DNA from: an uncultured Actinomycetota bacterium | GTDB lineage: Bacteria; Actinomycetota; Humimicrobiia; Humimicrobiales; Humimicrobiaceae | DNA length: 64,000 bases | Direction: 5' to 3' | Assembly: GCA_964415365.1 (NCBI GenBank) | Contig: CAYPYW010000002.1 | Location: 26,264-90,263 of the forward strand | Shown: in pieces, positions 1,617-52,264 of the stretch | How the letters are laid out: the number at the start of each line of letters is the position of its first letter | Numbering within the stretch: position 1 is the first letter of the stretch | Notes under the pieces: model-generated | Told to the model about the DNA's origin: nothing | Databases searched by the model: none | The model's input: the letters and a program-made list of their open reading frames with translations, nothing else | Made by a program: the position numbers and the translations under genes

Positions 1617-2801
1617 TTACAAATCTGAAACTGCAATTTTATTATCTTTAATTAAAAACTTATTCCCAAATTCCAAATCCAGTTTATCAAGATAACTAAT
1701 ATTTGTAGTAGTTACAAAAGTCTGAAACTTATTACTCACTGCTTTAACAAGTAATTTCTTTCTTTCTATATCAAGTTCTGAAAATACATCATCCAGAAGG
1801 AGAACAGGATCTTTTTTTATTTTTTTTCTCAGGATATCCAGTTCACAGAGTTTCAGACTTATGGAGGCAATACGTTGCTGACCCTGTGAACCAAAAAACC
1901 TTATATTTTTGCCATCAAGCAAAATTACGAAATCATCCCTATGTGGTCCTACTGTGGTGGTCTTATATTGCAGGTCCTTTTCCAGGCTTTCTCTTAATTT
2001 CAAGTAAAATATGCTTTTAAAGTCACCCTCCATAAGACTTTCCTTCCTACAGCTTCCCGCATCCGGACAATCTATAAAATCATCCGGACTGTCTCCTCTG
2101 TCCCAGCTAAATACATAAAATAGATCAACTTTAATTCCTTTAAAGAAATCACTTACGTAACTCTTAAATTCAGAAGTGAATTCAGTCAATAGATTATATC
2201 TTTTTTTAATTATATCGGCCCCATATTTGACAATATTATCATCCCACACTTCCAGTGTAGAACTACCGACTGCATCAGCCTTTCTATTAAAACTTTTAAT
2301 CAAGCTACTTCTCTGAGTAAGTATTTTCTGGTACTGCAAACGCTGCCTGTAATACAGTGGGTCAACTTTTTCAAGTACACTATCGAGGAAACTCCTCCTG
2401 TCCATAGGACCTGCTTTTACAATCTTCAGATCATCAGGAGAAAATATAACTGAGGGGAGTATTGATGTAAAATCAGATTTTTTCCTCCGGGATATTTTGT
2501 CTACCTTTATTTTTATGTCATTGCCTTTCTGCAGCTCTATCTCTATAAAACGATCCGGTTCATCATTTTTCTCGGAACTAATTAAAGCCTTTATTACAGA
2601 ATAATTACTCTCCCAATTAATAATCTCATCCTGGCCGTAAGTTCTGTGAGACCTGCCAGTAGATAAATAATATATGGATTCCAGCAAATTGGTTTTACCA
2701 TTACCATTATTACCCAGAATAAGAATGGTATTTTTATCAAAATTCAAATTGACATGACTGTAATTCCTGTAATTTTTAAGTTCTAACTTTTTTAAATACA
2801 T
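1617..2801 (-). CDS. recF: DNA replication/repair protein RecF
   Basis: N-terminal LELKNYRNY...ILGNNGNGKTNLLESIYYLSTGRSHR (Walker A); C-terminal LLLDDVFSELD signature; position upstream of gyrB. Confidence 0.9.
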   Translation of the reverse strand: MYLKKLELKNYRNYSHVNLNFDKNTILILGNNGNGKTNLLESIYYLSTGRSHRTYGQDEIINWESNYSVIKALISSEKNDEPDRFIEIELQKGNDIKIKVDKISRRKKSDFTSILPSVIFSPDDLKIVKAGPMDRRSFLDSVLEKVDPLYYRQRLQYQKILTQRSSLIKSFNRKADAVGSSTLEVWDDNIVKYGADIIKKRYNLLTEFTSEFKSYVSDFFKGIKVDLFYVFSWDRGDSPDDFIDCPDAGSCRKESLMEGDFKSIFYLKLRESLEKDLQYKTTTVGPHRDDFVILLDGKNIRFFGSQGQQRIASISLKLCELDILRKKIKKDPVLLLDDVFSELDIERKKLLVKAVSNKFQTFVTTTNISYLDKLDLEFGNKFLIKDNKIAVSDL

Positions 2802-3011
2802 TATGCCGTAGTGAATCTCTTAACATTTTTAACGCTTTTTTATAAAACGGTTATGCAATTTTCACAAAAGTGATAACCTGTTTACGTGAGAAATATAATT
2901 TCAAATTTCCCATATTTAATGCTTTAAATAATATCACCTATGAATTAAAACTTGAACTTTATCTCTCCCTGCGACATGCCTGACAAACTGTATTGCGTAA
3001 AGTAAGATTTT

Positions 3012-3042
3012 TTTACAATTATTATAAATATTCTGGTATAAT
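3012..3042 (+). promoter_or_regulatory. Candidate sigma70 promoter for the nuoE-like/nuoF-gltD operon
   Basis: TTTACA, then an 18-19 nt spacer, then TGGTATAAT (extended -10) about 70 nt upstream of the start at 3111. Confidence 0.3.
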
Positions 3043-3110
3043 TTTTGAAATAAATTGAAGTATAGTTTCCCTGAAATATTATTTTTTTGATTTCTCTGGA
3101 AAGGAATACA

Positions 3111-3605
3111 ATGTGGATTGCAGATCTGCCCAAATATAAGTTACAGCCCAAAGAAGTGAAAAGAATTGATGAAATAATAGAAAAATATAAAGGCAAAAAA
3201 GGAGCATTAATTCCAATTCTACAGAAAATTCAGGAACATATTAGTTTCATACCGGTAGAAGCTCAGAGAAGAGTTGCAGAAACATTAGATATCCCTGAAA
3301 AGGATGTTTATGGAGTAGTAACTTTCTATTCATTCTTTTCTATGGTTCCCAGAGGCAAGTATAATATAAGGGTTTGCCTGGGTACTGCATGTTTTGTAAA
3401 GGGTGGTAAAAGGATTTTAGATAAACTGGTTAAGGAATTTGGTATTGAACCAGGACAGACCACTGCCGATAGGAATTATTCATTACAAATTAATAGATGC
3501 CTCGGTGCCTGCGGACTTGCACCGGTAATTGTAGTGAATGATAGATTCTACCAGAAAGTTAACCCTGAAAAAGTTATTGATATCGTTTATTCCTGTAAAA
3601 AATAA
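3111..3605 (+). CDS. NuoE/HndA-like thioredoxin-fold [2Fe-2S] subunit (NADH dehydrogenase 24-kDa family)
   Basis: CLGTACFVKGG...CLGACGLAPV four-Cys motif with the TFYSFF region typical of NuoE/HoxE. The ATG at 3111 has AAAGGAA upstream; the track's longer ORF begins at an upstream TTG. Confidence 0.85.
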   Translation: MWIADLPKYKLQPKEVKRIDEIIEKYKGKKGALIPILQKIQEHISFIPVEAQRRVAETLDIPEKDVYGVVTFYSFFSMVPRGKYNIRVCLGTACFVKGGKRILDKLVKEFGIEPGQTTADRNYSLQINRCLGACGLAPVIVVNDRFYQKVNPEKVIDIVYSCKK

Positions 3606-3655
3606 AATTTTATCCGTTTTTCCATGCCGGAATATTTAAAAAAAGGATTAAGTAA

Positions 3656-6600
3656 TTGAGTAAAAAAACTCTAAAAATAAAAATAAAAGATGACCTTGAC
3701 AATATTAAAAAAGAATTAAACAGAAAAAAAGCTTTAAATCTTAAAGGAAATAAACACAGGATAACTGTACATCTCGGAACCTGCGGCATAGCTTCAGGCG
3801 CAGAAACAATATGCGATCTAGTCAAAAAAGCAATAACTTCTGGAAAACGCCATAAGATTGAGTTTACCACCTCCGGATGCGTAGGATTTTGTGCTCTGGA
3901 GCCTATGTTAACCATTGAATCATATAATTTACCCACAGTTACCTACTATAGTCTTGATAAAGATAAGATAAGAAAAATATTCGAAAGCCATATAGATAAT
4001 AGTGAGATAGCAGAGGAGCTTGAACCGATAACCACAGATTCCAGACTAGCGGACTTTTATAAATATCAGGAATCTAGAGTTTTAAGAAACCGGGGTAAAA
4101 TTGATCCTTTTAAAATTGAGGATTATATCGCAAAAGACGGTTACTTTGGTTTAGCCAAGGCTATTGAGATTGGCGATCCTGATAAGATCATTAAAACTAT
4201 TTCAGAATCAGGCTTAAGGGGACGTGGAGGTGCAGGTTTTCCGACAGGCAAGAAGTGGGAGCTTTGTAAAAATGCCCAATCCAGGAGCGGGGTCAAATAT
4301 GTAGTATGTAATGGTGATGAAGGAGACCCTGGCGCTTTTATGGACAGAAACCTGCTTGAATCCGATCCACATTCCATCCTCGAAGGAATGCTGATATCAG
4401 CTCTGGTGATTGGTTCAAACAAAGGTTACTTATATATAAGGGCAGAATATCCTCTTGCAGTTCGGACTGTGGAACACGCAATAAGACAGGCAAAAGATTA
4501 TGGTCTGATAGGAAAAAATATACTGGGCAGTGATTTTGATTTTGATGTTGAAATATATCAGGGCGCAGGCGCGTTTGTATGTGGTGAAGAAACTGCACTT
4601 ATAAGGTCAATTGAAGGCGGAAGAGGAATGCCAAAACCAAAACCGCCATTTCCTGCCAATGAGGGACTTTACTCGGAACCTACACTTATTAATAATGTTG
4701 AAACATTTTCAAACATTCCGCAGATAATTCTAAACGGGGCAAAATGGTTCAACAGTATTGGAACTTCAACAAGCAAAGGGACAAAGATATTTGCTTTAAC
4801 CGGAGCAGTTAATAACATTGGACTTGTAGAGATACCCATGGGTATGACTGTAAGAGATATCGTTTTTAAAATTGGCGGAGGAATAAGAAAAGGAAAAAAA
4901 TTTAAAGCAGTACAATTAGGAGGCCCATCTGGTGGATGTATTCCTGAAAAATTCCTTGATATTCCCATAGACTATGAGAAAGTAAAAGAAGTTGGCGCAA
5001 TAATGGGTTCAGGGGGGATGATTGTCTTAGATGAAGATACTTGCATGGTAGACCTTTCGAAATATTTTATGAATTTCATCCAGGAAGAATCCTGTGGGCA
5101 GTGTGTACCCTGTAGAATTGGTACTAAAAGGATGTTAGAAATACTGGAAAGAATCACTAGTGGAGAAGGAGAAAAAGGAGATATTGAAAAACTTGAAAAG
5201 CTATCAGCTGTAATCAAAGAAACTTCTCTCTGTGGGCTGGGAAAAACTGCTCCCAATCCTGTGATTAACACCATCTGCTATTTCCGTGAAGAGTATGAAG
5301 CACATGTGAAATATAAAAGATGTCCAGCCGTTGTATGTAAAGAGATAATTTCATCGCCATGCCAGCACGTCTGCCCAATTGATACAGAGGCTTCAGTTTA
5401 TATATCTCTAATTGCTAAAAGACACTTTAGGGAAGCATTTGATATCATTCTTAAAGACAATCCCCTGCCGTCTGTTTGTGCCAGAGTATGTCATCACCCC
5501 TGTGAATCCAAATGTCTGGCTGGTAAATGGGAGAGCCCGATCGCTATAAGGGCACTTAAGAAGTTTGTTTCTGAATATGCGTTAAAGGAAGGAATATACA
5601 CTAAACTAATAAAAGAGCAAAAAACGGATGGAGAAAAAGTTGCAATAATCGGCTCAGGGCCAGCTGGTCTAATGGCTGGTTTTAGACTCGCAGATAAAGG
5701 ATATAATGTTACTATTTTTGAGGAATTGGACGTTCCGGGAGGAGCATTAGTTGCTTGCATACCAGAATACAGATTGCCCAGGAATGTGCTTAATATTGAT
5801 ATAGAAAATATTAAAAATTCAGGTGTGAAAATTAAAACAAATACCAGAATAGGAGTAGATATACTATTCAGTGAACTTTTAAGCAACTATAAAGCTGTAT
5901 TCATAGCTACGGGAGCCCATAAATCACGGAAGTTACGTATTTTAAATGAAAATGCAGAAGGTGTTATAGATGCCATGAAATTTCTAAGAGATATAAACAG
6001 TAACAAGAAAGTCAGTATAGGTAAAAATGTTGGGATTATTGGTGGTGGTAATGCTGCTATAGATGCAGCCAGGACTGCGGCCAGAATCAAAGATTGCAAT
6101 AAAGTCCTTATAATCTATAGGCGGACAAGAAAAGAAATGCCGGCATTTGGTGAAGAAATAACCGCTGCTATTGAAGAAGGAATTGAAATCCAGCTCCTTA
6201 CGGCTCCCACTAAGATAATAGCTAAAAATGGAAAGGTTACAGGGGTTGAATGTATAAAAATGAAGTTGGGAGAAGTAGATGAAAGTGGCAGAAGGAAACC
6301 CATTCCTATCAAAGGTTCGGAGTTTATCATTAACCTGGATACTCTAATTGTAGCGATTGGAGAGGATCCTGATCTTGGTTTTCTTGATGAAAAAAACAAA
6401 ATAGGAGTTTCTAAAAGAGGTACAATAGTAGTGTGCCCGGAAACATTAGCTACAAATATCGATGGAGTTTTCGCAGGTGGAGATGTTGTTACTGGTTCAA
6501 ATACTGTAATAGATGCCATGTCAGCAGGAAAAATTGCTGCAGAGATGATTGATAAATATATTAAAGGGAAAAATTTAGCCAGAGAATATAAACCATCTAG

Positions 6601-6820
6601 ACCTTCAATGTATGTAGTACCCCCCACAGGGTTAGCAGAAAGAGATATTGAAGAAGTAATGAGACCTGAAATACCCTGTCTTCCCGTAAATAAAAGAATA
6701 AATAATTTCAATGAGGTTAATTTAAATATAACAGAAGAAGTAGCAGTAAGAGAAGCCAGACGCTGCCTCAGGTGTGACTTAGAGACTGAAGATGGGAAAA
6801 AAGTAATACTTGAAAAATAG
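3656..6820 (+). CDS. Fusion protein: N-terminal thioredoxin-like [2Fe-2S] + NuoF-like FMN/NADH/[4Fe-4S] domain + GltD/NfnB-like FAD/NAD(P)H oxidoreductase with two N-terminal [4Fe-4S] clusters
   Basis: GLRGRGGAGFPTGKKWE and ESCGQCVPCRIG are NuoF 51-kDa motifs. Downstream come CARVCHHPCESKC, then the VAIIGSGPAGLMAG and GIIGGGNAAIDAARTA dinucleotide folds of the GltD/NfnB family. 1054 aa, TTG start. Confidence 0.85.
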   Translation: MSKKTLKIKIKDDLDNIKKELNRKKALNLKGNKHRITVHLGTCGIASGAETICDLVKKAITSGKRHKIEFTTSGCVGFCALEPMLTIESYNLPTVTYYSLDKDKIRKIFESHIDNSEIAEELEPITTDSRLADFYKYQESRVLRNRGKIDPFKIEDYIAKDGYFGLAKAIEIGDPDKIIKTISESGLRGRGGAGFPTGKKWELCKNAQSRSGVKYVVCNGDEGDPGAFMDRNLLESDPHSILEGMLISALVIGSNKGYLYIRAEYPLAVRTVEHAIRQAKDYGLIGKNILGSDFDFDVEIYQGAGAFVCGEETALIRSIEGGRGMPKPKPPFPANEGLYSEPTLINNVETFSNIPQIILNGAKWFNSIGTSTSKGTKIFALTGAVNNIGLVEIPMGMTVRDIVFKIGGGIRKGKKFKAVQLGGPSGGCIPEKFLDIPIDYEKVKEVGAIMGSGGMIVLDEDTCMVDLSKYFMNFIQEESCGQCVPCRIGTKRMLEILERITSGEGEKGDIEKLEKLSAVIKETSLCGLGKTAPNPVINTICYFREEYEAHVKYKRCPAVVCKEIISSPCQHVCPIDTEASVYISLIAKRHFREAFDIILKDNPLPSVCARVCHHPCESKCLAGKWESPIAIRALKKFVSEYALKEGIYTKLIKEQKTDGEKVAIIGSGPAGLMAGFRLADKGYNVTIFEELDVPGGALVACIPEYRLPRNVLNIDIENIKNSGVKIKTNTRIGVDILFSELLSNYKAVFIATGAHKSRKLRILNENAEGVIDAMKFLRDINSNKKVSIGKNVGIIGGGNAAIDAARTAARIKDCNKVLIIYRRTRKEMPAFGEEITAAIEEGIEIQLLTAPTKIIAKNGKVTGVECIKMKLGEVDESGRRKPIPIKGSEFIINLDTLIVAIGEDPDLGFLDEKNKIGVSKRGTIVVCPETLATNIDGVFAGGDVVTGSNTVIDAMSAGKIAAEMIDKYIKGKNLAREYKPSRPSMYVVPPTGLAERDIEEVMRPEIPCLPVNKRINNFNEVNLNITEEVAVREARRCLRCDLETEDGKKVILEK

Positions 6821-6850
6821 TACAATAGGAAGTTTAAATGGTATGAAAAA

Positions 6851-7678
6851 TTGGAAGACCAAGTCTCAAAATTAGGTAAAAAAATTAAAATTAAAAAAAT
6901 TAAATCCTCTCACGGCAGCACCAATCTAATTGATGTAATTCCCCTTGAATTACTTCTAACTATTTTTCTAAACGGTAAACATATTTCGACAATTTCGTGC
7001 TCGCCCGCTAATCTGATCGAACTTACAATTGGTTATCTAGCAAATAATGGTTATATTGTAAGTTATTCAGATATAGAGCTCTTAAAAATTTGTAGTAATA
7101 ATATAAATAAAGCTACCAGCAGAAATGATCTGACTTCAAGAATTGAAGTTAGCACAGCCGCTGGTAAAAATAATATCATATGCCCGGATAGCTTAAAATT
7201 CATACCTTCAGGATGCGGTAGTATTGATGATTTTGTACTTAAAAAAAGTTTAAAAAAGATAAAGAGCAATATCAGAACTTCATCAGATATTGTGCTTGGC
7301 TTAAATAAAAAAACTACAGACCATCAAAAGTATAAAAGGGAATTTGGAGGTTTACATAGTGCTGCTCTGTTCAATAAAGATGGAAATTTATTAAATCTAT
7401 TAGAGGATATTGGAAGACATAACTGTATAGATAAAATAGCCGGCTATATGCTTATAAAAAAAATACCTGCTCAAGATAAGATTATATTTACCACGGGTAG
7501 ATTAAGCATTGATGTAATCTGTAAAATTTGTAGGATGCAAATTCCAATTATAGTTACCAACTCTTCGGTAACTTTTAGTGCTGCCCAGCTTGCAAAAAAA
7601 ATAAATCTAACCGTTATTGGTTATGCCAGAAGCGGTAGATTTAATATTTACTCAGGATCAAGGAGGATACAGAGGTGA
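6851..7678 (+). CDS. fdhD: Formate dehydrogenase accessory sulfurtransferase FdhD
   Basis: GGLHSAALF...DIGRHNCIDKIAGY motif of the FdhD/NarQ family; TTG start; 4-nt overlap with the next gene. Confidence 0.8.
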   Translation: MEDQVSKLGKKIKIKKIKSSHGSTNLIDVIPLELLLTIFLNGKHISTISCSPANLIELTIGYLANNGYIVSYSDIELLKICSNNINKATSRNDLTSRIEVSTAAGKNNIICPDSLKFIPSGCGSIDDFVLKKSLKKIKSNIRTSSDIVLGLNKKTTDHQKYKREFGGLHSAALFNKDGNLLNLLEDIGRHNCIDKIAGYMLIKKIPAQDKIIFTTGRLSIDVICKICRMQIPIIVTNSSVTFSAAQLAKKINLTVIGYARSGRFNIYSGSRRIQR

Positions 7679-8565
7679 ATCTAACAGGAGTAATATTAGC
7701 AGGTGGTAAAAGCAGCAGATTCGGCTTCAACAAGTTAAAAATCAAAGTAGATTCAGTACCATTATTTATAGACCAGATTTTTAAATTAAGCTTTTTTTGT
7801 GATGAAATAATAATAAGCACCTCAAAAAGCAACTATTCCATTATTTTTTCTGAGTTAAATAAAATCAGAATATATCAAAAAAAATACAACTTCGAAAAAA
7901 TAGGAACTTCTAATCCAAAAATAAGCTTTAAAGATTTCCTTAAAAGAGTCACAAAACCTCTAAATATAAAAATTATTCCAGATGAAAGTAACTGTAGTAG
8001 CTCAACTATAAAAAGTCTTTCAAATGTTACCAACCCTGGAGGATTTAAATCAGATTATGATACAATTGGACCTATAATTGGTATTTATTCAAGTCTTATA
8101 AATGCTGCATATTTTTATTCCATAATCGTTGCATTTGATATGCCTTTTATTTCTTACAATTTGCTAAAACATTTGATTTATGAATCCGGAATAAATATTG
8201 AAAAAACAAGCATAGATAAATCAGTAACAATATCCAATTATCCCGGAAAAAAAGATGCTTGCATAATTAAGAGTGAAAAAGGGTTTGAAGTTCTCTGTGG
8301 ATTATACTCAAAGGGCTGTGTTGATATTTTAAAAGAGAATATTAAAAAACAAAAATATAAAATATCGGATATTTTTACTAACCTGGATATCGAAATCATT
8401 TCAAGCAAAAAATTAGAATCATTTAAAATTGATAATCTCAATTTTTTTAATATAAACCTGGTACCGGATTATTATAAATTTAAAAATATATGGCAAAATA
8501 AAAAGATTGCATCGGGTACTAAAAAATCATTTACGGAAGCATGGAATGATTTTTTCTTCAGGTAA
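7675..8565 (+). CDS. MobA-like molybdenum cofactor guanylyltransferase-family protein (longer than canonical MobA)
   Basis: N-terminal GVILAGGKSSRFG and a later IVAFDMPFIS motif fit the MobA NTP-transferase fold. GTG start 8 nt after AGGAGG; translationally coupled to fdhD. Confidence 0.55.
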   Translation: MNLTGVILAGGKSSRFGFNKLKIKVDSVPLFIDQIFKLSFFCDEIIISTSKSNYSIIFSELNKIRIYQKKYNFEKIGTSNPKISFKDFLKRVTKPLNIKIIPDESNCSSSTIKSLSNVTNPGGFKSDYDTIGPIIGIYSSLINAAYFYSIIVAFDMPFISYNLLKHLIYESGINIEKTSIDKSVTISNYPGKKDACIIKSEKGFEVLCGLYSKGCVDILKENIKKQKYKISDIFTNLDIEIISSKKLESFKIDNLNFFNINLVPDYYKFKNIWQNKKIASGTKKSFTEAWNDFFFR

Positions 8566-8618
8566 ATATAATTTTCAATCACTGATTTTCATATATTTGG
8601 AGAAAATTATGCTTTCAG

Positions 8619-9245
8619 TTAAAGAAGCTCAGAATGAATCTGTGGAATTCTATCTATTCCATAATTGGAAGGGAAAACACCTGTAGGACAAATATCCATA
8701 CATTCCATGCATTTTTCACAATATTTGAAATAGGAAGACTCGGGAATAAATATAACCTTTTTATCTGTTCCTCTTCCTACAAAACCCACAGCATTATTTC
8801 CCTTCACTTCTTTGCAATATCTTACACAAAGTCCGCAGAGAATACAGTAATTATTTTCCTTTTTAAACCTGGTCCCGCTTAACTTATACTTTCTGGCAAG
8901 TTTCTTTATCTCAGGATTAAAGGGAAACAATGCAAGATATAATTCCACCAGATTTTTTCTGATTTTTTCTACCGCAGGACTCTCCGTCTGGACTATGAGA
9001 CCTTCCTCTGCCGGGTAGGCACAGGATGCAACTATCCTTGATCTGCCCTTTCTTTCCACCTCAACAAGACACAGCCTGCAGGCACCGTGAGGTTTTATCT
9101 TTTCGTGATAGCATAAAGTAGGAACATGAATCCCTGCCTTCTTTGCAGCTTGAAGTATGGTATCACCGTGATTTATTTCGACATTTTTGTCATTCATGGT
9201 TAGATTAATTTTTTTCCTACTTGAATCTTCTTTTTTATCATTCAT
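8619..9245 (-). CDS. NuoG/HndD N-terminal-domain-like ferredoxin, [2Fe-2S] plus two [4Fe-4S], with no catalytic domain
   Basis: LCYHEKIKPHGACRLCLVEV (2Fe-2S), CILCGLCVRYC and CEKCMECMDICP (4Fe-4S). Start placed at the internal ATG 9245, which has AGGAGA 8 nt upstream; the track ORF extends to 9293. Confidence 0.7.
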   Translation of the reverse strand: MNDKKEDSSRKKINLTMNDKNVEINHGDTILQAAKKAGIHVPTLCYHEKIKPHGACRLCLVEVERKGRSRIVASCAYPAEEGLIVQTESPAVEKIRKNLVELYLALFPFNPEIKKLARKYKLSGTRFKKENNYCILCGLCVRYCKEVKGNNAVGFVGRGTDKKVIFIPESSYFKYCEKCMECMDICPTGVFPSNYGIDRIPQIHSELL

Positions 9246-9309
9246 AATTATGTTCTCCTGACCTTTATATTCTCTTGATCTTTTATAAATCAACTTTAAG
9301 TCTTTTAAC

Positions 9310-11223
9310 CTACGACTCCCCTTTCTCCAGCACTACTCCCTCTTTAACAAGGCCTGTCTTCTTTTCGATAGCACTGTATTTTTCCGGACAAGCTCCTATA
9401 CAGGATCCACATTTAATACAAATTTCGCTGTCTATAACATGTGGCTTTTTACTCTCACCTTTTATTGCATCCACCGGACATACTTTTACACAACTCCCGC
9501 AACCGACACATTTATTTTTATCAATAACATAATTTATCAGTGGCCTGCACATTTTTGCCGGACACATATTGTAATAAATATGAGCTTCATATTCCTCTTT
9601 AAAATATTTTAGCGTGGTAAGCACAATATTCGGGGCAGTGGTACCCAAAGCACACAGAGAAGCTTCCTTGAGCAACAGCGATAAGTCCGCCAGAAGTGTT
9701 AAATCTTCCTCTCTGCCCTTCCCTTCCATTATTCTCTCATAAATATAAAGCATCTGCCTTAAACCTTCTCTACAGGGAACACACTTTCCACATGACTCGT
9801 CAGCTAAAAATTTCAGGAAGTAATGAGCCACATTTACCATACAGGAAGATTCATCCATAACCACCATACCTCCGGATCCCATCATTGATCCCGCTTTAGT
9901 CAATTCATCAAAGTCCACAGGAAGGTCAAGCAGTTTCTCAGGAATCACTCCACCCGAAGGTCCACCGGTCTGTACCGCTTTAAATTTTTTGCTGTCCTTA
10001 ATTCCACCGCCAATTTTATAAATAATATCCCTTAAGCTTATTCCCATTGGGACTTCGACTAACCCCGTGTTTTTGACTTTACCAACAAGTGAAAATATTT
10101 TTGTCCCGGTACTATCCTTAGTTCCCATGCTCCTGAACCAATCAGCACCATTTTTTATGATTAACGGAACATTTGCAAAGGTTTCTACGTTATTTAGATT
10201 AGTCGGTTTACCCCAGAGCCCGCTTACAGAAGTATGTATATATTTCAACCTGGGCTCTCCTACACTGCCTTCAATAGCAGTAGTAAGTGCGCTTGATTCC
10301 CCGGATACATAAGAGCCAGCACCTTTATGAACTTTAATATCAAAATTAAATCCGGAACCCAAAATATTTTCTCCGATCAATCCACACTCTCTGGCCTGAT
10401 TTATAGCAATATTTAAATTCTCTACCGTTAACGGATACTCCTGTCTGACATAAACAAATCCCATATTAGAGCCAATAGCATATGCCCCAATCATTAAACC
10501 TTCCAGAACGCTGTGGGGATTCCCCTCTAATATTCCTCTATCCATATACGCACCTGGATCCCCTTCATCCGCATTAACGATTATATACTTTGGTTCACCT
10601 TCTGCACTCCTGGTAGTTTCCCATTTCACACCTGTCGGAAAACCGCCTCCTCCCCGGCCCCTTAAGCCAGATTTCTTCACTTCTTCTATAACCCCTTCCG
10701 GACTCATCTGCCCGAGGACCCGAGCAAGAGCCTGATATCCACCCATCCTGATGTAATCATCAATACTTCTTGAATCTATCTTTAAATGGCTATAAAGAAG
10801 AACCCTTTTCTGGAATTTATAAAAAGGAATATCAGATTCCTTAATTATCGGATTTCCATTATCATCCTTATAAAGAAGCCTTTCTACCACTCCCCCCTTT
10901 AAAGCCTCGCCGATTATTTCAGCAACATCTTCTTTCTTCACCCTCAAATAACAAATATCCTTTGGATAAACAACCACAATCGGACCCATCTCACAATACC
11001 CATGGCAGCCTGTCCTGCGGATAATAATTCTACCTTTTTCTTTCATATGATTTCTTTCAATCTCATCAAGCAAAGCAGAATAGATATCCTCCGAACCATA
11101 AGCCTTACAGCCAGGTCCGCTGCATATAGAAAATACTATATCAGCACTATCCAGTCGCTCCTGAAATTCCTTTGCCCTCTTTTGTAAATCCTGTAGAGAA
11201 TTTATTTTGTTATTAACGGTCAT
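9310..11223 (-). CDS. NuoF-like subunit of HndC/HydB type: N-terminal thioredoxin-like [2Fe-2S], FMN/NADH site, C-terminal 2x[4Fe-4S] ferredoxin
   Basis: GLRGRGGGGFPTG, ESCGKCVPCREG, CVGCGSCVKVCP and CIKCGSCIGACP motifs; GAAGGAG sits upstream of the ATG. Confidence 0.85.
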   Translation of the reverse strand: MTVNNKINSLQDLQKRAKEFQERLDSADIVFSICSGPGCKAYGSEDIYSALLDEIERNHMKEKGRIIIRRTGCHGYCEMGPIVVVYPKDICYLRVKKEDVAEIIGEALKGGVVERLLYKDDNGNPIIKESDIPFYKFQKRVLLYSHLKIDSRSIDDYIRMGGYQALARVLGQMSPEGVIEEVKKSGLRGRGGGGFPTGVKWETTRSAEGEPKYIIVNADEGDPGAYMDRGILEGNPHSVLEGLMIGAYAIGSNMGFVYVRQEYPLTVENLNIAINQARECGLIGENILGSGFNFDIKVHKGAGSYVSGESSALTTAIEGSVGEPRLKYIHTSVSGLWGKPTNLNNVETFANVPLIIKNGADWFRSMGTKDSTGTKIFSLVGKVKNTGLVEVPMGISLRDIIYKIGGGIKDSKKFKAVQTGGPSGGVIPEKLLDLPVDFDELTKAGSMMGSGGMVVMDESSCMVNVAHYFLKFLADESCGKCVPCREGLRQMLYIYERIMEGKGREEDLTLLADLSLLLKEASLCALGTTAPNIVLTTLKYFKEEYEAHIYYNMCPAKMCRPLINYVIDKNKCVGCGSCVKVCPVDAIKGESKKPHVIDSEICIKCGSCIGACPEKYSAIEKKTGLVKEGVVLEKGES

Positions 11224-11290
11224 TATTAAAAACTCCTTCTGTGAGCATTAGTATTTTAATTAACATTCATATCTTTTTAGATATTAGAGT

Positions 11291-12268
11291 CTAACTTAAT
11301 TGTTTTAATATTTTCTTTAAATAACTGGCCGAGGGATTACTGTAATACTTATTGTCAACCATAACTACCGGCCCCAACGCACAGCAACCAAGACAATTTA
11401 CAGTTTTAAGAGTAAATCTGTAATCACTGGTTGTATCTCCCGGTTTTACCCCCAGAACACTGGTAATTCTCTGAAGTAAATTCATCGCTCCCCTAACATG
11501 ACATGCCGTACCCATACAAGCTACAATGGAATATTTACCCTGTGGTTCCAAATTAAAATATTTGTAAAAAGTAGTAATACTGTAGATATCTGTAAGAGGA
11601 ATATCCAACTTCTTACCAAGATAAAGCAGAATATGTCTGGGAAGCCAGTTATACTCATTCTGAATATCCAGAAGTATTTGTATCAAATTACTTTTTTCAC
11701 AATTGTGGTGATCAATTACTTTATCTACTTCCCCAAAATCTTCCATTGCTTCTTCCAAAACTAACTCCTTTTCTCTCTTTATTTTATCTAAATCGCCAAG
11801 CCACTCAGTCAGCTGGCTCTGAATCACATTTATTCTCTCCATATCCCTATGACTCTCAAAAGCACTTTCATGACCGGTACCCGATGGGTGGCTAATATCA
11901 CCTCTTATCTTACTTCCAGTATCTACTTCCCTCTTATTTTTATCCGGACTATATTGTTTCGGTTTGGAACCGGCACTCCTCAAACCAAGGCCTGGCCTCT
12001 TCTTTATCTTATATTTTGCTTTTTTGTCCTTATAACCAGTTCTGTCTATCAATCCCTCTTTTTCCAACAGTTTTAAAGTCCGATAAATTGTAGCCTGCCC
12101 TATCCTGGGATGTTTTTTATGAGAGAGAAAGAATAATTCCTCCGCATCCAGTTCACCAGGACTTTTCAGCAAAATATCCAGAATAACCATCCTGGTTCCG
12201 GTAAGTCTGAACCCGCTCCTCTTTATTCTCTGTTTATAGGTATCGATATCTTTTTTATTATTCCCCAT
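11291..12268 (-). CDS. Fusion of a Fur-family winged-helix DNA-binding domain with a NuoE/HndA-like [2Fe-2S] thioredoxin-fold domain
   Basis: N-terminal RLTGTRMVILDILLKSPGELDAEELF...IGQATIYRTLKLLEKEGLI matches the Fur/PerR DNA-binding domain and is missing the Fur metal/dimerisation domain. A K-rich linker follows, then the NuoE motifs CMGTACHVRGA...CLGCCALGPV. Confidence 0.8.
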   Translation of the reverse strand: MGNNKKDIDTYKQRIKRSGFRLTGTRMVILDILLKSPGELDAEELFFLSHKKHPRIGQATIYRTLKLLEKEGLIDRTGYKDKKAKYKIKKRPGLGLRSAGSKPKQYSPDKNKREVDTGSKIRGDISHPSGTGHESAFESHRDMERINVIQSQLTEWLGDLDKIKREKELVLEEAMEDFGEVDKVIDHHNCEKSNLIQILLDIQNEYNWLPRHILLYLGKKLDIPLTDIYSITTFYKYFNLEPQGKYSIVACMGTACHVRGAMNLLQRITSVLGVKPGDTTSDYRFTLKTVNCLGCCALGPVVMVDNKYYSNPSASYLKKILKQLS

Positions 12269-12292
12269 CCTACAGGTTTGGATGATTATTTA

Positions 12293-12315
12293 TTGATAAT
12301 GATAATGATTTTCAA
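12293..12315. promoter_or_regulatory. Fur-box-like operator (GATAAT hexamer repeats) 25-47 bp upstream of the Fur-DBD::NuoE gene
   Basis: TTGATAATGATAATGATTTTCAA resembles the Fur consensus GATAATGATAATCATTATC. Confidence 0.5.
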
Positions 12316-12373
12316 TTTTATCCGTAATTATACTCCGGGGATTTATCCTGTCAACAAATGTATATTACAGTTA

Positions 12374-13189
12374 CTAATATATTCTTACTTTTGCCCCCAG
12401 GGGAAGCATCTCATACAGCCACTTTGCTTCCTCTAATTTTAATCTTATACATCCGTGACTGGCAGGAGTACCCAGTTTATCGTATTCCTCTTGAATCATT
12501 TGACCGTCTTCATCATAGGGAACACTGTGAAAGAGATAATCGCTATAAAACCTTACCCAGTAATAAGCTCCCATCTTATACTTATCATTCCAGAAGTAAT
12601 AACTCTTTTGCGTGGTCGTGAATTCTCCCGGCGGAGTCGGCTTCTCTTCAATACCTCCGGAGCATATCATTTCTTTTATCACATTATCTTTATAAAATAT
12701 AAAAACCTTCTGGAGGGAAAGGTTAACTTCTATTCTAAAATAATCCTTATTGGTAAAATCTATTTCCTCGCCTCCATTTTGCGAGGAATTGTCATTCTCA
12801 TTTTGCATTTCTTCACCGCCAGTCTGTCCCTGGTCCTCTATATTTTCCTCACCGTCAACCTCTTCCTCCACTTCTTCTTCGGTGAGAATATCCGAATCGT
12901 CATTTATGATATTTTCATCAATTTCGTCACTCAATAAATCCCCATTGTTAAATTCCCCGGAACCGGTCTCACCTAAATCATTACCGAAATCATTATTATT
13001 TTCCGGCAGAGAACTTAGATCATCTGTTTCCGCACTTCCTGATAAATCCTCTGTAATTTCCAATGATCCTTCTGAGGCTTCCGAATAATTCCTGCAGGAT
13101 AAAATCATGGTACAGGCAAATACACAAACCAAAAAAATATATACTACAATCATTATTTTGCTGCTAAATTTTTTTAAAAAACCACCCAT
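12374..13189 (-). CDS. L,D-transpeptidase (YkuD domain) with signal/TM segment and a long acidic low-complexity linker
   Basis: C-terminal ...GTPASHGCIRLKLEEAKWLY catalytic His/Cys motif; N-terminal hydrophobic segment; D/E-rich repeats. Confidence 0.75.
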   Translation of the reverse strand: MGGFLKKFSSKIMIVVYIFLVCVFACTMILSCRNYSEASEGSLEITEDLSGSAETDDLSSLPENNNDFGNDLGETGSGEFNNGDLLSDEIDENIINDDSDILTEEEVEEEVDGEENIEDQGQTGGEEMQNENDNSSQNGGEEIDFTNKDYFRIEVNLSLQKVFIFYKDNVIKEMICSGGIEEKPTPPGEFTTTQKSYYFWNDKYKMGAYYWVRFYSDYLFHSVPYDEDGQMIQEEYDKLGTPASHGCIRLKLEEAKWLYEMLPLGAKVRIY

Positions 13190-35139: not shown

Positions 35140-36092
35140 TTATCCCTTGACATCAAGTATAAATAATGCTATCATAAAAATCCATACTTGTCAATAGGGG
35201 ATAAAAATGAAAAAAGAAAAATTTACAATTAAAGACTTTAACAAGATGTATCCAGATGACAATTCTTGTCTTAATGAGATATTTAAAAACCGTTATGGAG
35301 ATTTAAAAGTCTGTCCTGGGTGTAAGAAGAAAACCAATTTCTATAAAGTAAAAGGACGTAAAGCTTATGCTTGCCAGTACTGCGGTTACCAGATTAGCCC
35401 TTTAGCAGATACTATATTCCATAAATCCTCAACGAGTTTGAGAAACTGGTTTTATTCCCTGTATCTATTTTCTGTATCTAAAAATGGAGTATCTGCTAAG
35501 GAACTTGAAAGACAGCTTGGAGTTACCTATAAATGTGCTTGGAGAATTGCAAAACAAATTAGATTGCTATTTAAACAGAATAAGAAACTCTTATCTGATA
35601 TAGTGGAAATTGACGAAACATATATCGGTGGCAAACATAGAGGTAAAAGAGGCAGGGGTTCAGAAAATAAAACTTCTGTTGTGGGACTTGCTCAAAGGAA
35701 GGGAACTATAAAAGCTAAAGTTACCGATAATACAAAATCATCTACAATTAAAGCTATCATAAAGGATAATGTTGAAATTGGAATTAATCTAGTTACAGAT
35801 GAATATAGAAGTTATAACGGATTAGGCAAATTAGGATTTAAGCATTTTACAATCAATCATGGAGATGAAGAATGGGTTAGTGGTATTGCTCACGTAAATA
35901 CTATTGAGGGCTTCTGGTCACAACTAAAGAGGTCAATTAATGGGACTTACCATTGCGTTTCCCCGAAGTATCTGCAACATTACGTTGACGAGTTTGTTTA
36001 CCGCTATAATTATAGGCTTTCTTCTTTCCCGATTTTTTTAGATCTTGTTTTATCGGCTGGGAAGCAAGTTTAATTATGTGCTTAAAATCATC
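35140..36092 (+). mobile_element. Compact IS1595-family insertion sequence; ends approximate
   Basis: A single transposase ORF fills the gap between flanking genes, 71 bp to the left and 20 bp to the right. Inverted repeats were not confidently resolved. Confidence 0.4.
35207..36073 (+). CDS. IS1595-family (ISXO2-like) transposase
   Basis: N-terminal zinc ribbon CPGCKKK...CQYCGY, then YKCAWRIAKQIR and DETYIGG DDE-region motifs. Confidence 0.8.
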   Translation: MKKEKFTIKDFNKMYPDDNSCLNEIFKNRYGDLKVCPGCKKKTNFYKVKGRKAYACQYCGYQISPLADTIFHKSSTSLRNWFYSLYLFSVSKNGVSAKELERQLGVTYKCAWRIAKQIRLLFKQNKKLLSDIVEIDETYIGGKHRGKRGRGSENKTSVVGLAQRKGTIKAKVTDNTKSSTIKAIIKDNVEIGINLVTDEYRSYNGLGKLGFKHFTINHGDEEWVSGIAHVNTIEGFWSQLKRSINGTYHCVSPKYLQHYVDEFVYRYNYRLSSFPIFLDLVLSAGKQV

Positions 36093-51264: not shown

Positions 51265-51765
51265 CTATTTTATTTCTTTAAACATCTCTTTTGGATTTCC
51301 ACAGATAGGACACCTGTCCGGTGCAGCGCCCTCTACAGTATTTCCACAGACCTGGCATACAAAAATAGGAGTATCTTCATTGTTCCCTATATTGTCCAGA
51401 TATTTCTTATATAACTCAGCATGCACCTGTTCGACCTTATTGGCAAAAACAAAACTTTCCCTTGCTTTTTCCGCATTTTCACTTTTTGCCTCCTCAATCA
51501 TTCTAGGATACATTTCCTTAAACTCAAAAGTTTCTCCACTTACCGCAGCTTTTAGATTTTCCTCTGTGGATTTAATCCCATCCATTGCTTTTAGATGGTT
51601 GAGCGCATGCACAGTTTCTGCTCCTGCCGCAGCTCTAAAGAGTTTCGCTATCTGGGGATAGCCATCCAGGTCAGCTTTTCTTGCAAAAGCTAGATATTTT
51701 CTATTTGCCTGTGATTCCCCTGCAAAGGCATCTGCCAGATTTTTTAAAGTTTTATCACCCGTCAT
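51265..51765 (-). CDS. rbr: Rubrerythrin
   Basis: Ferritin-like diiron motifs ...AGESQA...ETVHA...E.KEM.., and the C-terminal rubredoxin-like CQVCG...CPICG. ATG at 51765 has GGAGAGGAG upstream; the track ORF is over-extended. Confidence 0.85.
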   Translation of the reverse strand: MTGDKTLKNLADAFAGESQANRKYLAFARKADLDGYPQIAKLFRAAAGAETVHALNHLKAMDGIKSTEENLKAAVSGETFEFKEMYPRMIEEAKSENAEKARESFVFANKVEQVHAELYKKYLDNIGNNEDTPIFVCQVCGNTVEGAAPDRCPICGNPKEMFKEIK

Positions 51766-51796
51766 CTTTTTTCTCCTCTCCTCCATTAAATTTATA

Positions 51797-52210
51797 TTAT
51801 TTATCTCTTTTACATTTATCACATATACCCTCAAAAATAATCTTTGAGTTTAATATATTAAACTTCCTGCTTATGCTTTCCGGTACTTCTATACAGTAGG
51901 AATCATCGTGGATATCTATAATATTATCACACTTCATGCACCTGAAATGATAATGTCTGTTTCTATCACCATCGAATCTCTTCGGTTCACCGGGAAGCGT
52001 CAGAATATCGGCAACACCTATTCTAGAGAAAGTCATAAGCGTTCTATAAACTGTATCGAAAGAAATGGTGGGAAATATTTTTTTTACTTTTTTATAAAGA
52101 ATTTCTGCACTGGGATGGTCCTTTGACTCCACCAACTCTTTATAAATTAAACTCCTTTGGGGTGTGACTTTTAAATTATTCTCTTTACATAATTTAATAA
52201 AAGATTCCAT
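51797..52210 (-). CDS. perR: Fur-family regulator, PerR-like
   Basis: KVTPQRSLIYKEL...HPSAEILYKKV...ISFDTVYRTL DNA-binding domain, plus HYHFRC..C...C..C metal sites. Confidence 0.75.
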   Translation of the reverse strand: MESFIKLCKENNLKVTPQRSLIYKELVESKDHPSAEILYKKVKKIFPTISFDTVYRTLMTFSRIGVADILTLPGEPKRFDGDRNRHYHFRCMKCDNIIDIHDDSYCIEVPESISRKFNILNSKIIFEGICDKCKRDK

Positions 52211-52240
52211 AGCAATTCCCTGGACTCTAAATAGTTAAAA

Positions 52241-52264
52241 TTATTATATAATAACAATTATTAT
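52241..52264. promoter_or_regulatory. Per/Fur-box-like palindrome upstream of perR
   Basis: TTATTATATAATAACAATTATTAT: TTATTAT/ATAATAA half-sites arranged as abutting and 3-nt-spaced inverted repeats, 30-55 bp upstream of the perR start. Confidence 0.4.

Follow-up and report, generated by a model that had tools for sequence, protein, structure and literature searches.

Enzymes of the BfuABC family are defined by their domain content (Schut et al. 2022, PMC9304861): a BfuB with a flavin mononucleotide (FMN) site, an SLBB domain, the NuoF [4Fe-4S] and ferredoxin-type 4Fe-4S clusters, together with a NuoE-type BfuC and a BfuA that has, as a minimum, a 2Fe-2S and a 4Fe-4S ferredoxin-type domain. 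In Bfu enzymes the C-terminal 2x[4Fe-4S] domain carries electrons to ferredoxin, and residue H525 of Acetomicrobium mobile HydB is conserved in bifurcating BfuB proteins and absent in non-bifurcating homologues (PMC9304861). Here we describe a locus of seven genes (3087–12268) in a 64,000-nucleotide (nt) stretch of contig CAYPYW010000002.1 from an uncultured Actinomycetota bacterium; this whole stretch is called the window below. The genes form two units arranged tail to tail (convergent): the four genes of module 1 are on the plus strand and the three genes of module 2 on the minus strand. We give a probability of roughly 0.75 to the following reading: module 1 is the remnant of a formate dehydrogenase (fdh) operon after a repeat-mediated deletion of its catalytic gene fdhA, and module 2 is a separate, self-contained BfuABC-type core under a Fur box.

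Deletion of fdhA from an fdh operon

Gene identities were assigned by Pfam and NCBIfam profile scans of open reading frame (ORF) translations; the scans confirmed all seven genes, and with them the domain assignments of an earlier sequence-only reading of the window. The features of module 1 are listed here (loci of relatives are labelled L001, L003, L006 and so on; aa, amino acids):

3111–3605, plus strand: nuoE-type [2Fe-2S] subunit (PF01257 at 1.9e-51)
3656–6820, plus strand: nuoF::gltD fusion, 1054 aa (Pfam; NCBIfam nuoF_fam, PRK12771)
6821–6850, plus strand: deletion scar at the former site of fdhA (about 2.7 kb), from alignments to L003, L007, L049 and L050
6851–7678, plus strand: fdhD, formate dehydrogenase sulfurtransferase, intact (PF02634 at 1e-61)
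7675–8565, plus strand: mobA-like guanylyltransferase, 296 aa, intact (PF12804 at aa 5–54)

No catalytic subunit had been noticed in the locus by the sequence-only reading, and we found none either. Pfam detected no Molybdopterin or Fe-hydrogenase domain in ORFs of at least 120 aa between position 1 and 55 kb. When FdhA of a relative was compared with all 64 kb (tblastn), the sole match was the Fe-S part of the small ferredoxin of module 2 (31% identity), where the N-terminal Fe-S portion of the relative's FdhA aligns with the protein called short BfuA below. Neither a molybdenum-type bis-pyranopterin guanine dinucleotide (Mo-bisPGD) domain nor an H-cluster domain is thus present in the 64-kb window, and as an operon for a molybdenum or tungsten (Mo/W)-bisPGD formate dehydrogenase the locus has the FdhD and lacks the catalytic FdhA. 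The window also yielded no tRNA-Sec (ARAGORN) and no molybdenum cofactor (Moco) or other riboswitch (Rfam).

The nearest named homologues are from metagenome-assembled genomes of Candidatus (Ca.) Humimicrobiaceae (Actinomycetota, class Ca. Humimicrobiia), 'Actinobacteria bacterium' and Ca. Hydromicrobium. We compared the window with loci of Ca. Humimicrobiia-type Actinomycetota in which the fusion is 66–93% identical, or FdhD 88% identical. In eight out of eight related loci that reach the slot, fdhA adjoins the fusion or immediately precedes fdhD:

L001/L009 (fusion 82%): nuoE, nuoF::gltD, 900-aa FdhA, fdhD, mobA; convergent small ferredoxin, NuoF and Fur::NuoE; then YkuD
L027 (fusion 78%): full architecture as in L001
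L006 (fusion 84%): nuoE, fusion, fdhA (919 aa), fdhD
L007 (fusion 85%): nuoE, fusion, fdhA (922 aa), fdhD
L003/L005 (fusion 93%): fdhA begins 18 nt past the fusion and runs off the contig
L011 (fusion 66%): nuoE-fdhA-fdhD-mobA, divergent beside the fusion
L050 (FdhD 88%): 3' end of fdhA directly upstream of fdhD
L049 (FdhD 85%): last codons of fdhA directly upstream of fdhD

The conserved operon in relatives is nuoE-nuoF::gltD-fdhA-fdhD-mobA, and the earlier suggestion that fdhD and mobA point to a Mo/W-bisPGD formate dehydrogenase is supported by the fdhA that relatives carry in this same operon. FdhA of relatives is 900–922 aa long where complete and joins a Mo/W-bisPGD domain to a NuoG-like Fe-S N-terminus. 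For the L001 protein, the Fdh-alpha equivalog model TIGR01591 gives 882 bits, above its cut-off of 666. All are of the Cys type, with a Cys-His active site (CH in 'DHCARICHAPTV'), so selenocysteine plays no part in them, and the missing enzyme need not be the selenoprotein that had been considered.

In the window only 30 nt separate the fusion stop from the fdhD start. We aligned this gap to the fusion-end/fdhA-start region of L003 and L007 and to the fdhA-end/fdhD-start region of L049 and L050. Left of the join, the window follows the relatives through the fusion stop, the fdhA ribosome-binding site and the fdhA ATG (...GAAAAATAGTACAATAGGAAGTTTAAATG); right of the join, it follows the stretch after the fdhA stop in L049 and L050 (GTATGAAAAATTGGAAG...). 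The 8-bp sequence TTTAAATG is found at the fdhA start in L003 and L007, and a second copy is found 14 nt past the fdhA stop in L050 (L049 has TTTGAATG at that place); both copies are embedded in a longer imperfect repeat, which reflects the similar 3' ends of the two genes. The window has lost everything from codon 2 of fdhA to 14 nt beyond the fdhA stop, and exactly one TTTAAATG is left (6833–6840), along with the fdhA ribosome-binding site AGGAAG (6827–6832) and the ATG (6838–6840). These flanks point to slippage or illegitimate recombination between short direct repeats as the way in which fdhA was lost.

The junction is found in a second assembly: a Logan contig of 1060 nt (L008, SRR14802574) is 100% identical to the window across it. 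Assemblers work with k-mers much longer than 8 bp, so a repeat of this length cannot cause a false join. Since the junction recurs and no k-mer assembler would be misled by so short a repeat, we take the deletion as real. In other Joint Genome Institute (JGI) metagenomes the junction was not found (0 matches in one scan, and in another 27 chance matches without genes of the locus). The puzzle of an electron-transfer locus with no catalytic subunit, for which the sequence-only reading offered either a subunit encoded elsewhere or stand-alone complexes, is explained by an ordinary repeat-mediated deletion of fdhA with its scar in the nuoF::gltD–fdhD gap.

The retained fdhA ribosome-binding site and ATG now head a three-codon mini-ORF (ATG GTA TGA, 6838–6846), which stops 5 nt short of the TTG with which fdhD starts. 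The sequence ATGGTATGA is also found upstream of fdhD in L049 and L050, so that translation of fdhD may now run from the fdhA ribosome-binding site.

The NuoE of module 1, 164 aa from ATG 3111 as in relatives (its ORF opens at TTG 3087), is 82–95% identical to the product of the gene upstream of the fusion in relatives. The fusion contains, in this order, a thioredoxin-like N-domain, an FMN/NADH site, SLBB, a [4Fe-4S], Fer4_20 (2x[4Fe-4S]) and a domain for flavin adenine dinucleotide (FAD) and NADP(H) (Pyr_redox_2); its NuoF part covers residues ~30–566 and its GltD/NfnB-type part residues 546–1040. Among PDB chains, bifurcating BfuB proteins are the top matches of aa 36–566 (7T2R_B, 656 bits), and 7T2R_B, StnB and HydB together score 647–656 bits versus 334–402 bits for FdsB. 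The best match of aa 567–1041 is the GltD-like domain of NfnA/StnC (9BOV_A, 394 bits), and the nearest solved relatives of this part are the NADPH domains of NfnA and StnC (9BOV_A, 9N5U_A, 8OH5_C). The B2-site residues are kept in the alignment (C, T, H, C, C), and all cofactor motifs of the fusion are intact. Its GltD part has a GGGNAA motif, which is of the GxGxxA kind assigned to NADP(H) by Kremp et al. Homologues of nuoF::gltD number more than 8000. By its domains module 1 departs from the BfuABC definition, as its NuoF ends in Fer4_20 and Pyr_redox_2 with no B3/B4 ferredoxin domain, and only relatives have an equivalent of BfuA, in the N-terminus of their FdhA; it also departs from the Stn/Nfn-Bfu type, in which GltD is inside the A subunit, because its GltD is fused to NuoF.

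FdhD scores 171 bits against TIGR00129 (cut-off 140.9) and preserves every column that is invariant across seven relatives. It has four private changes at otherwise conserved positions, versus one and one in the two closest relatives, numbers too small to indicate relaxed selection either way. The mobA-like protein is matched by MobA profiles in two pieces (aa 2–58 and 127–270; best NCBIfam model 78 bits, cut-off 164); the halves of its MobA fold are separated by an insertion rich in S and N, about 70 aa long (window 7930–8050, aa ~85–125). Homologues in relatives are 295–301 aa long, i.e. the length of the insertion is conserved, and they are 57–88% identical over the full length and always follow fdhD where present.

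In relatives, FdhA would be the catalytic subunit of a complex with three ports: NAD(H) at the FMN, NADP(H) at the FAD and CO2/formate at the pterin, the last reached through the NuoG-like clusters of FdhA. The simplest reading of these domains is a CO2 reductase that serves the Wood-Ljungdahl pathway, works reversibly and is linked to NAD(P). An Nfn-like mode is thermodynamically conceivable as well, in which NuoE-NuoF::GltD-FdhA would split the electrons of NADPH between NAD+ and CO2, with CO2 in the place of ferredoxin. No biochemical description of a NuoF::GltD-FdhA enzyme was found in the searchable literature. UBA1414 is a name that we take to be the older one for the Humimicrobiia-type class. 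For UBA1414 and neighbouring clades, Merino et al. (2020) draw the gene neighbourhoods of the pathway, and their figure legends name fdh, gltD and nuo among the genes shown.

Module 2, a separable cassette behind a Fur box

Module 2 and its upstream region comprise the following features:

8619–9245, minus strand: short BfuA, 208 aa (Fer2_4 and Fer4_Nqo3/Fer4_7, no PF10588)
9310–11223, minus strand: BfuB, 637 aa (PF01512, PF10531 (SLBB), PF10589 and two Fer4)
11291–12268, minus strand: BfuC, a Fur-head::NuoE fusion (PF01475 at aa 18–90, PF01257)
12295–12313, minus strand: canonical Fur box, GATAATGATAATGATTTTC on the plus strand (17/19 against GATAATGATAATCATTATC)
12327–12354, minus strand: predicted sigma-70-type promoter, TTGACA-16 nt-TATAAT (the only 12/12 match in 2700–12500)

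The sequence-only reading had seen in the two modules the parts of one system present twice; the related loci separate them into an fdhA operon and a cassette of its own. The fdh operon is found without module 2 in L006, L007 and L049; moeA and a Mo/W transporter come next in L049, unrelated genes in L006. Conversely, module 2 is found without the fdh operon in L046, L047 and L048; in L046, for example, the Fur::NuoE-BfuB-BfuA cassette stands alone beside a Fur gene and a flavodoxin. The NuoF parts of the two modules are only 47% identical, whereas module 2 reaches 54–55% identity with the NuoF::GltD clusters of other phyla; we therefore rejected paralogous duplication as the origin of the two modules.

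Other genes were observed around these loci. In L047 (1344–6879) the cassette is directly downstream of genes for carbon monoxide dehydrogenase/acetyl-CoA synthase (CODH/ACS; CdhC, CdhD, a pterin-binding protein and a CooC-like ATPase); a stand-alone Fur gene in divergent orientation separates the two. In L048 (12030–12920) a FocA-type formate/nitrite transporter takes the slot of the fdh operon between module 2 and recF. Between the fdh operon and ykuD lies a hot spot of rearrangement. In L007 (13700–17000) a Y2-type transposase and unrelated genes replace module 2, and mobA is cut short (tblastn covers aa 1–225 of 296).

The domains that define a BfuABC core are encoded in module 2: a BfuB with FMN, SLBB, NuoF [4Fe-4S] and ferredoxin-type 4Fe-4S domains, a NuoE-type BfuC and a BfuA. 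BfuB is a NuoF of the HydB/HndC type, with an N-terminal [2Fe-2S], the FMN/NADH site, a [4Fe-4S] and a C-terminal 2x[4Fe-4S] domain in this order; its best solved matches are the NiFe-Bfu HydB and WorB (7T2R_B and 9MQX_B, 734 bits each), and, compared with 7T2R_B, it keeps the B2-site ligands C438, H525, C531 and C536.

Short BfuA has 208 aa from ATG 9245, or 224 aa from TTG 9293, and its best PDB match is WorA (9MQX_A, residues 4–183 of 247). Earlier it was described as a ferredoxin of the NuoG/HndD N-terminal type that stops where a catalytic domain would begin. This description stands for the clusters, [2Fe-2S] A1 and two [4Fe-4S], A2 and A4 (two CxxCxxCxxxC motifs), and fails for the rest: A3, A5 and the docking tail are missing, and since PF10588 (the His-ligated [4Fe-4S] of NuoG, HndD and FdhA) is absent, short BfuA is not simply the N-terminus of HndD or NuoG cut at the catalytic domain. 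Nor is it a recent truncation, a concern raised with that description, because the protein is 205–209 aa long (70–79% identity) in five other loci. Given the conserved length and the lack of PF10588, we rejected a truncated HndD, NuoG or FdhA as its origin.

BfuC consists of a Fur-type head (aa ~10–90), a basic low-complexity linker of ~90 aa and a NuoE [2Fe-2S] domain (aa 182–324). The head aligns to aa 7–83 of the Fur structure 4RAZ (crystallised with DNA) and keeps the recognition helix ATIYRTL; the Fur dimerisation/metal domain is missing, with positions 76–121 of the Fur profile unmatched. There are 2139 homologues of Fur::NuoE, and both domains are present in all of the top 120. We found no description of a Fur::NuoE fusion in the searchable literature.

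The Fur box is located 27–45 nt upstream of the BfuC start codon and 14 nt past the −10 element. When 19-mers were scored by their matches to the classical consensus, it was the single best Fur-box match of the 64-kb window (the next best has 15/19), and the sites upstream of orthologous Fur::NuoE genes in five other loci (L001, L027, L046, L047 and L048) score 17–19/19, one of them being perfect. In each of the six loci the cassette has a perfect sigma-70 promoter ahead of it as well as a Fur box. The regulator acting at the box would be either a canonical Fur or the Fur head of BfuC itself. Elsewhere in the window (51265–52260, minus strand), a stand-alone Fur-family gene (137 aa) and a rubrerythrin gene are placed head to tail with a 38-nt overlap; the second-best Fur-box-like site (15/19, at 52247) is just upstream of this pair, and the arrangement looks PerR-like.

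Further afield, recF is at 1617–2801 (minus strand), and dciA-gyrB-gyrA precede recF in relatives; the locus is thus within a conserved recF-gyrBA neighbourhood, of the kind usually found close to the origin of replication. Negative GC skew prevails across most of the window, and an IS1595-family transposase gene (DDE_Tnp_IS1595 and zinc ribbon) is at 35207–36073.

Explanations weighed against each other

The reading we prefer starts from an ancestral five-gene operon nuoE-nuoF::gltD-fdhA-fdhD-mobA, typical of Ca. Humimicrobiia-type Actinomycetota, in which NuoE and NuoF::GltD would supply an NAD(H) site at the FMN and an NADP(H) site at the FAD. Slippage or illegitimate recombination between the TTTAAATG copies, one over the start codon and the other 14 nt past the stop, excised fdhA precisely and so left the diaphorase, FdhD and MobA without a local client. 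As these leftovers are intact, the loss would be recent, or they would still serve something encoded elsewhere; what remains of module 1 would, if anything, shuttle electrons between NADH and NADPH only. Module 2 would be transcribed from a strong promoter overlapped by a conserved Fur box, and it combines a DNA-reading Fur head on BfuC, a bifurcating-type BfuB and a minimal WorA-like BfuA that ends in an exposed [4Fe-4S]. No gene for a third substrate was found beside the cassette in six loci (the window, L001, L027, L046, L047 and L048). Most likely, module 2 links NADH and ferredoxin or flavodoxin, with electrons passing via BfuA and a partner encoded away from the cassette; it would be either the core of a larger enzyme with such a distant partner or, by itself, a minimal enzyme of the NADH:ferredoxin/flavodoxin type.

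Several points weigh against this reading. Both assemblies that carry the junction may stem from reads of the same project. An FdhD without decay would also fit continued use, and clients for FdhD and MobA, a further fdhA or some other gene, may lie outside the 64-kb window. At the B2 site of the module 2 BfuB, position C476 is Met, which is unusual. Five of the six contexts of module 2 touch C1 metabolism (the fdh operon in three, a FocA-like transporter and CODH/ACS in one each), which would be compatible with a possible functional link of module 2 to formate or CO. Finally, we infer all enzymatic activities of both modules from their genes.

Among the alternatives, the one that survives best, unlikely as we judge it, is a catalytic subunit in trans: a second fdhA or fdhF elsewhere in the genome would use NuoE and NuoF::GltD, or at least FdhD and MobA, and module 1 would still work. 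The full-length fdhD and mobA-like genes with all conserved residues present would suit this, as would the fdhA ribosome-binding site kept directly ahead of fdhD, and docking of a separate FdhF to Bfu cores is known, e.g. HylABC-FdhF2 (PMC9304861). However, no Mo-bisPGD domain was found across the 64 kb and no second copy of fdhA in any related locus (loci, not whole genomes). Moreover, FdhA of relatives supplies the NuoG-like Fe-S bridge to NuoF, so a replacement in trans would need the same N-terminus.

We consider it clearly less probable that NuoE and NuoF::GltD form a stand-alone NADH:NADP(H) transhydrogenase of the Stn/Nfn kind, perhaps borrowing the BfuA of module 2 as a ferredoxin port, with the loss of fdhA selected. 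A stand-alone role of this kind was one of the two options of the sequence-only reading. The cofactor motifs of the fusion are all intact and the GltD part is nearest to the NADPH-binding domain of NfnA/StnC, but the fusion lacks the C-terminal 2x[4Fe-4S] ferredoxin domain, and short BfuA sits in a separately promoted, convergent operon. Clusters of other phyla bear on both sides of this question. In WOR-3, Eubacteriales, Acidobacteriota and an unclassified metagenome-assembled genome (L012, L013, L015 and L032), nuoE-nuoF::gltD is followed by a short BfuA that is 42–46% identical to that of module 2, yet the clusters continue with a conserved 526-aa Glu_synthase (PF01645) protein and are hence not stand-alone there. 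They look like a NADH-fed glutamate-synthase-like complex, judging by their domains. A glutamate dehydrogenase gene is found upstream of the cluster in L013 and an asparaginase gene downstream in L032 (about 13.1–15.5 kb in L013 and L032). In none of the related loci did nuoE-nuoF::gltD occur by itself. As the fusion lies beside FdhA or the Glu_synthase-domain protein in the lineages examined, it is better seen as a general electron-input unit with a catalytic partner; a stand-alone transhydrogenase is poorly supported for module 1 and, beside a partner encoded elsewhere, is one possibility for module 2.

An assembly or binning artefact, in which the organism has fdhA and the contig was mis-joined, is very improbable: the source contig is metagenome-assembled, the junction-spanning Logan contig is short and an fdhA-carrying relative is present in a sibling run (L002), but two assemblers gave the identical junction, and a join that falls precisely on an 8-bp direct repeat, with the correct sequence to its left and right, is what a biological deletion leaves behind.

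A bolder proposal, which we regard as tentative and doubtful, concerns both modules. BfuC would be the subunit of a trigger enzyme, whose Fur head binds the Fur box of its own promoter while the complex passes its assembly, Fe-S or redox state straight on to transcription, making the BfuABC core a regulated link between NADH and ferredoxin or flavodoxin; in a second, independent proposal, the NuoE-NuoF::GltD-FdhA of relatives would be the NADPH-splitting enzyme outlined above.

With the deletion of fdhA, an electron-transfer kit without its enzyme is explained as gene loss caught in the act. Loss of formate dehydrogenase in formate-rich niches is a known pattern (PMC9751293, PMC10103890), which the loss in the window fits. 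The comparison also defines the intact ancestral enzyme, a formate dehydrogenase whose NuoF carries a GltD-type NADP(H) module, and brings out a widespread Bfu core of three genes that bears a Fur head and lies behind a conserved Fur box. This Fur-headed core is a testable candidate for a Bfu clade whose third substrate is still to be assigned.

Comparison with known systems

The bifurcating formate dehydrogenases, Fdh-Bfu (HylABC-FdhF2 of Gottschalkia acidurici and Type 1 of Carboxydothermus hydrogenoformans; PMC9304861), likewise connect NuoE and NuoF through a NuoG-like Fe-S part to Mo/W-bisPGD. In Type 1 the NuoG-like N-terminus is carried by FdhA, as in the relatives of the window, and the NuoF part of module 1 keeps the His and Cys typical of bifurcating BfuB. 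Module 1 differs in having a GltD-type 2x[4Fe-4S]/FAD/NADP(H) module in place of the C-terminal 2x[4Fe-4S] domain of BfuB; it gains a second pyridine-nucleotide site and has no obvious ferredoxin port, and in the window FdhA is gone.

Stn of Sporomusa ovata and NfnABC of Caldicellulosiruptor and Thermococcus (PMC7483475, PMC11829005; PDB 8OH5, 9BOV, 9N5U) are made of the same blocks, NuoE, NuoF and a GltD-like NADPH domain. There, however, GltD is inserted in the A subunit beside a dead molybdopterin domain, whereas in module 1 it extends the B subunit at its C-terminus, and relatives have a genuine FdhA as their A-type subunit. FdsABG (Rhodobacter capsulatus, Cupriavidus necator; PDB 6TGA, 6VW7) shares the NuoE/NuoF/NuoG-FdhA logic and the FdhD maturation factor, but FdsB is a far weaker match to the fusion (334–402 versus 656 bits), and FdsABG has no GltD module.

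Module 2 is most like the WorABC core of WorABCSL, the tungsten aldehyde oxidoreductase of A. mobile (PDB 9MQX, PMC12318220), which is a Type 2 Bfu. Both have only the A1, A2 and A4 clusters in a short BfuA and three genes for C, B and A, and BfuB matches WorB with 734 bits. Unlike WorABC, module 2 has no WorS/WorL or other catalytic genes beside it in the six loci, its BfuA lacks the C-terminal zinc finger and adaptor helix with which WorA docks the catalytic subunits, and its BfuC has a Fur head. With the Fur family (e.g. Magnetospirillum Fur, PDB 4RAZ) this head shares the winged-helix DNA-binding domain, the conserved recognition helix and a Fur box in the module 2 promoter; a linker and the NuoE [2Fe-2S] domain stand in place of the dimerisation/metal-sensing domain. 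Set beside these systems, two arrangements appear to be new: a formate dehydrogenase with a NuoF::GltD module, and a minimal Bfu core that is headed by Fur and preceded by a Fur box.

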